A DNA stretch of 64,000 nt, taken from NCBI RefSeq assembly GCF_003334785.1, contig NZ_QOWV01000013.1; one strand, given 5' to 3'. The notes under the pieces are model-generated. The model had not been told where the DNA came from. It was given only the letters and a program-made list of their open reading frames with translations, and ran no database searches. Position 1 is the first letter of the stretch, and each line of letters begins with the position of its first letter. The translations under genes were made by a program, and so were the position numbers. Of the stretch, positions 18,629-21,600 are shown one piece after another. Source of the stretch: Escherichia coli. GTDB lineage: Bacteria; Pseudomonadota; Gammaproteobacteria; Enterobacterales; Enterobacteriaceae.

Positions 18629-21600
18629 ATGCAGGTCAGCAGAAGGCAGTTCTTTAAGATCTGCGCTGGCGGTATGGCAGGCACCACGGCAGCGGCACTG
18701 GGTTTTGCACCCAGCGTAGCACTCGCGGAAACCCGGCAGTATAAACTGCTGCGCACCCGCGAAACCCGTAATACCTGCACCTATTGTTCCGTAGGCTGTG
18801 GGCTGTTGATGTACAGCCTCGGTGACGGAGCAAAAAACGCCAAAGCATCTATCTTCCATATCGAAGGCGATCCGGATCACCCGGTCAACCGCGGTGCACT
18901 TTGTCCGAAAGGCGCTGGCCTGGTGGATTTCATCCACTCCGAAAGCCGTCTGAAGTTTCCGGAATACCGTGCGCCAGGTTCTGATAAATGGCAGCAAATC
19001 AGTTGGGAAGAGGCGTTTGATCGCATCGCCAAACTGATGAAAGAAGACCGCGATGCTAACTACATTGCGCAAAACGCCGAAGGCGTGACTGTTAACCGCT
19101 GGCTCTCCACCGGGATGCTGTGTGCTTCCGCGTCGAGTAACGAAACCGGCTATTTAACGCAAAAATTCTCCCGCGCGCTGGGTATGCTCGCGGTCGACAA
19201 CCAGGCGCGTGTCTGACACGGACCAACGGTAGCAAGTCTTGCTCCAACATTTGGTCGCGGTGCGATGACCAACCACTGGGTCGACATCAAGAACGCCAAC
19301 CTCGTCGTGGTGATGGGCGGTAACGCCGCTGAAGCTCACCCGGTCGGGTTCCGCTGGGCGATGGAAGCCAAAATTCACAACGGCGCGAAGCTGATTGTGA
19401 TCGATCCTCGCTTTACGCGTACGGCGGCGGTAGCTGACTACTATGCCCCTATTCGTTCCGGTACTGACATTGCTTTCCTGTCAGGCGTATTGCTGTACCT
19501 GCTGAACAATGAAAAATTCAACCGCGAATACACCGAAGCCTATACCAACGCCAGCCTGATCGTGCGTGAGGATTACGGCTTTGAAGATGGCCTGTTCACC
19601 GGCTACGACGCGGAAAAACGCAAGTACGATAAATCCTCCTGGACTTATGAACTGGACGAAAACGGCTTCGCCAAACGCGATACCACGCTGCAACATCCGC
19701 GCTGCGTGTGGAACTTGCTGAAACAGCACGTTTCCCGCTACACGCCAGATGTGGTTGAAAACATCTGTGGTACGCCAAAAGACGCGTTCCTGAAAGTCTG
19801 CGAATACATCGCAGAAACCAGTGCTCACGATAAAACTGCCTCGTTCCTGTATGCCCTCGGCTGGACGCAACACTCCGTTGGTGCGCAAAACATTCGTACG
19901 ATGGCGATGATCCAGCTGCTGCTCGGCAATATGGGGATGGCAGGCGGCGGCGTTAACGCCCTGCGCGGTCACTCCAATATTCAGGGGCTGACGGACCTGG
20001 GGCTGCTGTCGCAGAGCCTGCCAGGTTACATGACGCTGCCAAGCGAGAAGCAGACCGATCTGCAAACCTACCTTACCGCCAACACGCCAAAACCGCTGCT
20101 GGAAGGCCAGGTAAACTACTGGGGCAACTACCCGAAATTCTTCGTCTCTATGATGAAGGCCTTCTTTGGTGATAAAGCGACGGCGGAAAATAGCTGGGGC
20201 TTTGACTGGTTGCCGAAGTGGGATAAAGGCTACGACGTCCTGCAATACTTCGAGATGATGAAAGAGGGCAAGGTCAATGGCTATATCTGCCAGGGCTTTA
20301 ACCCTGTTGCCTCATTCCCGAACAAAAACAAAGTGATCGGTTGTCTGTCGAAACTGAAGTTCCTCGTCACCATCGACCCACTGAACACTGAAACCTCTAA
20401 CTTCTGGCAGAACCACGGTGAGCTGAACGAAGTTGACTCGTCGAAGATCCAGACCGAAGTGTTCCGTCTGCCATCGACCTGCTTCGCGGAAGAGAACGGT
20501 TCTATCGTTAACTCAGGTCGCTGGTTACAGTGGCACTGGAAAGGTGCGGACGCCCCGGGGATTGCGCTGACTGACGGCGAGATCCTCTCCGGTATCTTCC
20601 TGCGCTTGCGCAAGATGTATGCCGAACAGGGTGGCGCGAACCCGGACCAGGTGCTGAACATGACATGGAACTACGCCATTCCGCATGAGCCATCTTCAGA
20701 AGAAGTGGCGATGGAGAGCAACGGTAAGGCGCTGGCCGATATTACCGATCCGGCAACCGGTGCGGTTATCGTCAAGAAAGGCCAACAACTTAGTTCGTTC
20801 GCCCAATTGCGCGATGACGGTACAACCTCCTGTGGCTGCTGGATTTTCGCCGGTAGCTGGACGCCGGAAGGCAACCAGATGGCACGCCGTGATAACGCCG
20901 ATCCGTCTGGCCTCGGTAACACGCTGGGCTGGGCATGGGCATGGCCGCTTAACCGCCGCATTCTGTATAACCGCGCCTCCGCAGATCCGCAGGGTAACCC
21001 GTGGGATCCGAAGCGTCAGTTGCTGAAATGGGACGGCACTAAGTGGACCGGCTGGGATATTCCGGACTACAGCGCAGCGCCTCCGGGTAGCGGCGTCGGG
21101 CCGTTTATCATGCAGCAGGAAGGCATGGGGCGTCTGTTTGCCCTCGATAAGATGGCGGAAGGTCCGTTCCCGGAACACTACGAGCCGTTTGAAACGCCGC
21201 TGGGAACTAACCCGCTGCATCCAAACGTTATCTCGAACCCGGCTGCACGTATCTTTAAAGACGACGCCGAAGCATTGGGTAAAGCCGATAAGTTCCCGTA
21301 TGTCGGAACCACCTATCGTCTGACCGAGCACTTCCACTACTGGACCAAACACGCGCTGTTGAACGCGATTTTGCAGCCAGAGCAGTTTGTGGAAATCGGG
21401 GAGTCGCTGGCGAATAAACTTGGCATTGCCCAGGGCGATACCGTGAAAGTCTCCTCCAACCGTGGCTATATCAAAGCCAAAGCGGTGGTGACCAAACGTA
21501 TTCGCACGCTGAAAGCGAACGGCAAAGATATCGATACCATCGGTATTCCGATTCACTGGGGCTATGAAGGCGTAGCTAAAAAAGGCTTTATTGCCAATAC

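Follow-up and report, generated by a model that had tools for sequence, protein, structure and literature searches.

An FdnG/FdoG-type SECIS hairpin and the decoding of the in-frame UGA codon 196 of Escherichia coli fdoG as selenocysteine

The UGA found in frame at codon 196 of fdoG, the gene encoding the alpha (catalytic) subunit of formate dehydrogenase-O in Escherichia coli, is almost certainly translated as selenocysteine (Sec) by means of a SECIS hairpin of the FdnG/FdoG type and the SelB pathway. The gene was analysed within a stretch of 64,000 nucleotides of E. coli DNA (denoted here as the window, with positions counted from its first letter), and the features discussed are collected in Table 1. 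The original prediction, made from the letters of the window, had interpreted this site as selenocysteine recoding directed by an adjacent SECIS and had considered it established biology for formate dehydrogenase-O. The first statement is supported by the continuity of the reading frame, by the alignment of the codon with residue X196 of a solved homologue, by the Rfam SECIS_3 match and by published mass spectrometry (PMC3636253). The second is one with which we agree: Sec recoding of fdoG with a SECIS was already known, with prior mass spectrometry in that same report, and it represents a textbook bacterial Sec signal served by the established SelB pathway.

Table 1. Position of the features considered in this work; the rows from STnc370 downwards correspond to Rfam matches above the gathering score.
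Feature	Position	Strand	Basis
fdhD, accessory sulfurtransferase, divergent from fdoG	17602..18435	-	TIGR00129, 340 bits; annotation
fdoG, formate dehydrogenase-O alpha (catalytic) subunit	18629..21679	+	single frame; TIGR01553; 1kqf_A; MG1655 b3894
Rfam SECIS_3 (RF01989) match extent	19211..19269	+	full model 1-59/59, 84.3 bits
UGA codon 196, decoded as selenocysteine	19214..19216	+	frame, X196 alignment, homologue sites, mass spectrometry (PMC3636253)
Lower helix, 5' arm, includes A of UGA	19216..19226	+	E. coli minimum-free-energy register
Apical minihelix, nt 15-32, presumed SelB-binding part	19228..19245	+	folds; covariation; fdhF spacing
Lower helix, 3' arm, contains GGUC 19253-19256	19251..19261	+	fold
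fdoH, iron-sulfur beta subunit, same operon as fdoG	21692..22594	+	TIGR01582, 478.7 bits; annotation
fdoI, cytochrome b556 gamma subunit	22591..23226	+	NF007924, 453.3 bits; annotation
fdhE, formate dehydrogenase accessory protein	23223..24152	+	NF002925, 604 bits
STnc370	44168-44236	-	Rfam
ES222	46126-46233	-	Rfam
CsrC	53162-53415	-	Rfam; annotated at matching K-12 position
Spot 42	54444-54562	-	Rfam; annotated at matching K-12 position
5S rRNA (rrfA)	63817-63932	-	Rfam; annotated at matching K-12 position
naRNA4/REP, further copy	1048-1125	+	Rfam
naRNA4/REP, further copy	50841-50918	-	Rfam

A Single Reading Frame across the UGA

Translation of positions 18629-21679 of the plus strand yields 1017 codons, that is, 1016 sense codons including Sec196 and a terminal TAA, with the TGA of codon 196 (19214-19216) as the sole internal stop. 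The original description of a 1016-codon frame interrupted only by this TGA was, thus, correct. The DNA of the gene (3051 nt) is identical to that of fdoG from E. coli K-12 MG1655 (b3894). For the comparisons with protein profiles and structure chains, Cys was put in at position 196. Under these conditions, the read-through protein covered positions 1-1009 of the 1009 of the NCBIfam profile TIGR01553, which describes the alpha subunit of selenocysteine-containing Mo-bisMGD formate dehydrogenases, in one stretch across the TGA and with 1574.6 bits, the curated cut-off being 814.2 bits. Likewise, residues 1-1015 of FdoG aligned with 1kqf_A, the chain of the FdnG crystal structure, continuously across the TGA (1902 bits), and codon 196 fell on X196, the non-standard residue of this chain that corresponds to the Sec of the solved homologue.

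The original prediction had also warned that the gene is easily mis-annotated as two genes or as a pseudogene. A mechanical list of open reading frames does split fdoG, giving two segments that share a frame (18629..19216 and 19265..21679), but the worry does not extend to the current RefSeq records, in which the gene is a single CDS of 3051 nt. As far as annotation is concerned, the TGA is to be read as Sec, making fdoG the gene of a single selenoprotein of 1016 residues instead of a pair of ORFs or a pseudogene. In the RefSeq/PGAP records, the fdo-locus gene bears the name 'fdnG: formate dehydrogenase-N subunit alpha', even though its neighbour is named fdoH, while the curated NC_000913.3 record gives the name fdoG to the equivalent of 18629-21679. 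The PGAP name probably stems from TIGR01553, a model named after Fdh-N whose cut-off is exceeded by the two paralogues alike.

The identity of the residue inserted at the UGA was addressed by Zorn et al., who showed by mass spectrometry that FdoG and FdnG alike carry Sec at position 196, where Cys was never seen (PMC3636253). The Sec peptide that these authors detected, VU196HGPTVASLAPTFGR, was listed as 'FdoG or FdnG' and, because this tryptic peptide is identical in the two proteins, it cannot by itself assign Sec to FdoG. The same work reported FdoG-specific peptides at residues 391, 554 and 618, which denote translation past the UGA, and described that translation ends at codon 196 when selC or Sec-tRNA(Sec) is missing (PMC3636253). 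According to the same source, E. coli has just three UGA-Sec sites, that of fdoG among them.

The SECIS Hairpin and Its Geometry

When the entire 64 kb was searched with the Rfam covariance models, the fdoG site was the only SECIS match, and its SECIS_3 score was above the gathering score of 63 bits (E = 1.4e-18 for the whole window). On SECIS_2, the fdhF-type model, the element obtained merely 28.1 bits versus a gathering score of 70. Since it scores above threshold on SECIS_3, is identical to the element of fdnG and scores low on SECIS_2, its sequence allows it to be assigned to the FdnG/FdoG type.

The original prediction had placed a hairpin directly after the TGA, and this was confirmed by both the fold (19216-19261) and the SECIS_3 match of 84.3 bits. 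The element is found inside the ORF and directly 3' of the in-frame UGA; the 46-49 nt following the TGA fold as a hairpin whose energy lies between -13.8 and -14.6 kcal/mol, the latter value being that of the minimum-free-energy hairpin of 19214-19262. Numbering the U of the UGA as nucleotide 1, the apical minihelix begins 11 nt downstream of the UGA and is made of the pairs G15G16/C31C32 and A18-A22/U26-U30, leaving a bulged U17 (19230). The apical loop corresponds to G23 U24 C25 (19236-19238, with G23/U24 at 19236-19237), and the SelB-contact loop would read (A)GUC(U), at 19235-19239. This geometry is that described for the invariant SelB determinants, namely U17, G23 and U24, which lie in an upper stem-loop of 17 nt separated from the UGA by 11 nt (PMC8659212). 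In the lower helix, the E. coli fold pairs A3-A13 with U38-U48. The GGUC motif that the original prediction had pointed out is indeed present within the range given for it, but it sits in the 3' arm of this lower stem and not in the apical loop.

Conservation and Covariation across Species

Homologous loci were retrieved by scanning species-representative genomes with a codon-degenerate pattern, in which third positions were free and TGA, TGC or TGT were allowed at the Sec site. The scan yielded at least 120 loci, from Enterobacterales, Pseudomonas, Stutzerimonas, Burkholderiales, Rhizobiales, Xanthomonadales and Geomesophilobacter, and also from metagenome-assembled genomes labelled Actinomycetota and Terriglobia. 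Among the matches listed, TGA occupied the Sec site in 120 out of 120, and none of these 120 contained TGC or TGT (Cys), even though the pattern allowed both. In all 120 listed matches, the Thr codon was ACG, giving G15, and codon 203 was AGU or GGU, giving G23 and U24. G15, U17, G23 and U24 are, therefore, invariant in these 120 matches, G15, G23 and U24 being positions that the pattern left free and U17 one that it fixed. Within E. coli, a match to the 121 nt around the TGA was present in every complete genome (5426 of 5426), and this region was at least 99% identical in 5420 of the 5434 matching records.

Covariation was evaluated on an alignment of 68 distinct sequences, that of the window included, drawn from the at least 120 listed loci, to which the following figures refer. 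The apical helix was paired in 99.8% of the cells. The pair formed by columns 18 and 30 was GC in 51 sequences, AU in 13 and GU in four, and that formed by columns 21 and 27 was AU in 49, CG in 16 and GC in three; both pairs, hence, underwent double compensatory changes supporting the helix, all of them at synonymous third codon positions. The whole structure was 92% paired, in comparison with 26-49% when the partners were slid by 1-3 columns, and a covariation score as high as that observed was reached in none of 500 shuffles. In the lower helix, pairing was conserved in just 84-86%, and the third positions past the hairpin (alignment columns 51 and 54) changed freely from taxon to taxon among the matches listed.

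With respect to the register of the lower helix, that proposed by Rfam fits the sequences of the Pseudomonas/Burkholderia type, whereas the Enterobacterales sequence is shifted by one, with a bulge on its 3' side (columns 7-16 and 41-51). Application of the Rfam register to the Enterobacterales sequence leaves A12 and A8 mispaired.

Folding Energy, Chance Expectation and Codon Choice

RNA folding had been proposed as a check of the original prediction, with the lack of a stable stem-loop as its refutation. The hairpin did form, but its energy was not unusual, with z values of -1.45 to -1.65 for full-length constructs (9-19 of 200 shuffles folded equally well) and -0.03 for the 91-nt context; for the 20-nt apical fragment, z was -2.22. 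The stability of the hairpin alone is not significant and, by itself, would not carry the SECIS claim. Because the energy falls within the range of shuffled sequences, the presence or lack of a stable stem-loop is a weak test, and folding energy was dropped as evidence for the SECIS.

A motif defined by the spacing of the key nucleotides (TGA, then G15 G16 U17, G23 U24 and C31 C32) is expected 0.09 times per window and was found twice, the helix being formed at the fdoG site only. The other site, at 44641-44672 (minus strand) inside bipA, was rejected upon inspection of the matched sequence, since it is out of frame and no helix is possible.

Codons 197-209 of fdoG read CAC GGA CCA ACG GTA GCA AGT CTT GCT CCA ACA TTT GGT, and the codons throughout the hairpin are non-preferred. 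The codon adaptation of this segment is the third lowest of the 1004 13-codon windows of the gene and belongs to the lowest 0.8% of the 14,973 windows derived from 44 genes of the stretch. The fdoG site illustrates how an RNA element lying in a coding region can be evidenced by synonymous-site covariation and codon choice, and not by folding energy.

Alternative Explanations

Should the TGA be a genuine stop, the region would contain two genes, or a pseudogene yielding a 195-residue N-terminal fragment. It is true that mechanical ORF calling splits the frame at this point and that some termination at the UGA is expected, as recoding competes with RF2 (PMC4513850). However, the TIGR01553 profile and 1kqf_A align without interruption across the TGA, this codon is kept in all 120 of the matches listed and in essentially all of the 5426 E. 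coli genomes, and peptides of the 391-618 region of FdoG were detected (PMC3636253), which leaves a genuine stop with next to no chance of being correct. It is almost inconceivable, too, that the ribosome reads through the UGA independently of the Sec machinery, using a near-cognate Trp-tRNA or inserting Cys, and is merely slowed by the hairpin. A UGA followed by C constitutes a weak termination context, which would favor such read-through, and the C is present here, fixed by the His codon. Against it, the hairpin matches a SECIS covariance model, with the SelB determinants at their canonical spacing, Cys is never found at position 196, and selC mutants terminate at that codon (PMC3636253).

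A different objection does not concern the residue inserted but the meaning of the nucleotide conservation after the TGA, which could reflect constraint on the active site of the protein, together with gene conversion between fdoG and fdnG, instead of selection on RNA structure. The encoded peptide HGPTVASLAPTFGRGAMTNHW is nearly invariant among the matches listed, and the run of identity between the paralogues reaches 19281, beyond the end of the hairpin, as this proposal would anticipate. Nevertheless, we give it virtually no credence: third codon positions, which the protein cannot fix, covary as base pairs across orders, non-preferred codons are used all along the hairpin, and third positions beyond it (columns 51 and 54) are free to vary among the matches listed. 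Gene conversion may add to the identity of the E. coli paralogues, but it does not replace the explanation based on a SECIS, by which codon 196 is decoded as Sec.

Genomic Context and Other Observations in the Window

The segment fdhD-fdoGHI-fdhE shows zero differences between the window and NC_000913.3. None of the trans-acting factors selA, selB, selC and selD is located within the 64-kb window, and no tRNA gene was found there; on the K-12 map, selAB lies at 3.758-3.761 Mb, with some 280 kb between it and the closer edge of the window. A scan of the window for frames split by a TGA, with at least 150 codons on each side, yielded only fdoG and a frame antisense to glnA (48096..46378, minus strand). 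The latter (46378-48096, 418 + 155 codons, TGA at 46845) was attributed to chance, as it has no SECIS match and is antisense to a known gene.

The sequence of the window is not that of MG1655 itself: compared with the reverse complement of NC_000913.3 4040451-4104450, it presents 16 substitutions. It also has 184 bp fewer in a REP/naRNA4 repeat array at 9917-10145, where two Rfam naRNA4 copies remain (9970-10040 and 10062-10132). In yihU, encoding 3-sulfolactaldehyde reductase (30880-31776, plus strand), a CAG to TAG change relative to MG1655 at 31681-31683 creates an amber stop at Gln268, 31 codons before the normal end. Five natural E. coli isolates carry this 981-nt allele with 100% identity, so that the TAG represents a genuine polymorphism rather than an error.

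The SECIS query also matched places labelled as plasmid, seven in all. One of them, in the 298-kb linear record NZ_CP159530.1 (plasmid pZYS9073-A), contains at 188013-206129 the chromosomal neighbourhood narZ-narU-yddG-fdnGHI-adhP-maeA with a SECIS-bearing fdnG, and the record resembles a piece of chromosome that was given a plasmid label.

Proposed Mechanism

These observations can be integrated into the following model. The mRNA directly 3' of the UGA would fold into a SECIS_3-type hairpin, with the apical minihelix starting 11 nt after the UGA, and would present the bulged U17 and the loop G23/U24 to the C-terminal domain of SelB, the specialised elongation factor. The binding of the apical minihelix by the C-terminal winged-helix domain of SelB-GTP in complex with Sec-tRNA(Sec) has been described (PMC8124441). 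SelB-GTP with its Sec-tRNA(Sec) would in this way be anchored to the ribosome at its mRNA entrance when the UGA reaches the A site, and Sec would be delivered to this codon in competition with RF2. The lower helix would melt as the ribosome, which covers about 11 nt in its mRNA tunnel (PMC4513850), arrives; as the lower helix must melt, strict constraint would apply to the apical part only, and the imperfect pairing of the lower helix fits a stem of this kind. Once inserted, Sec196, which is essential for Fdh-O activity, would coordinate the molybdenum of the bis-MGD active site, as its counterpart does in the FdnG structure, a role that derives from literature cited in PMC3636253.

Comparison with the fdnG and fdhF Elements

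The original prediction had suggested a comparison with the SECIS elements of fdnG and fdhF; the fdoG element proved to be identical to the former and to share the positions of U17, G23 and U24 with the latter. The original descriptions of this biology, as referenced in PMC3636253, are reportedly those of Sawers et al. (1991), Abaibou et al. (1995) for the fdo locus, Berg et al. (1991) and Jormakka et al. (2002), the last one being said to have provided the crystal structure of FdnG (1KQF/1KQG). FdoG aligns with this structure from residue 1 to 1015, the UGA falling on the non-standard residue 196, and no solved structure of Fdh-O appeared among the matches of the structure-chain search.

In the case of fdnG (E. 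coli MG1655, codon 196, RF01989), the 59-nt match is the same as that of fdoG in both sequence and score (84.3 bits), and the codon number and the flanking peptide are also shared. There is, hence, no difference within the element, although the paralogues are found at different loci and are differently regulated. FdoG and FdnG are 77% identical in amino acids and 74.8% in nucleotides. The longest run of identity between the two genes spans 71 nt (19211-19281), extending 20 nt beyond the hairpin, while the next longest is 36 nt. All codons from 195 to 217 are identical, the background fraction of identical codons at positions with the same amino acid being 0.61. The lower-helix register of Enterobacterales may differ from that of the Pseudomonas/Burkholderia-type sequences, which dominate the Rfam consensus, and this, together with the identity past the hairpin, could point to an extended, lineage-specific element that adjusts the efficiency of recoding or couples the expression of fdoG and fdnG beyond what the known minimal SECIS does, a notion that we regard as very improbable.

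The SECIS of fdhF (formate dehydrogenase-H, codon 140, RF01988), which scores 87.1 bits on SECIS_2, is the experimentally dissected prototype. It has in common with fdoG a UGA followed by CAC GG and a minihelix beginning at nt 15 and closed by the pairs G15G16/C-C (PMC8659212), and its bulged U17 and loop G23 U24 occupy exactly the positions that they have in fdoG. The two elements differ in the loop, which in fdhF is GGUC on an upper stem of 4 bp and in fdoG (A)GUC(U) on one of 4-5 bp, and in the sequence of the lower helix. SelB presumably contacts the fdoG hairpin exactly as it does that of fdhF.
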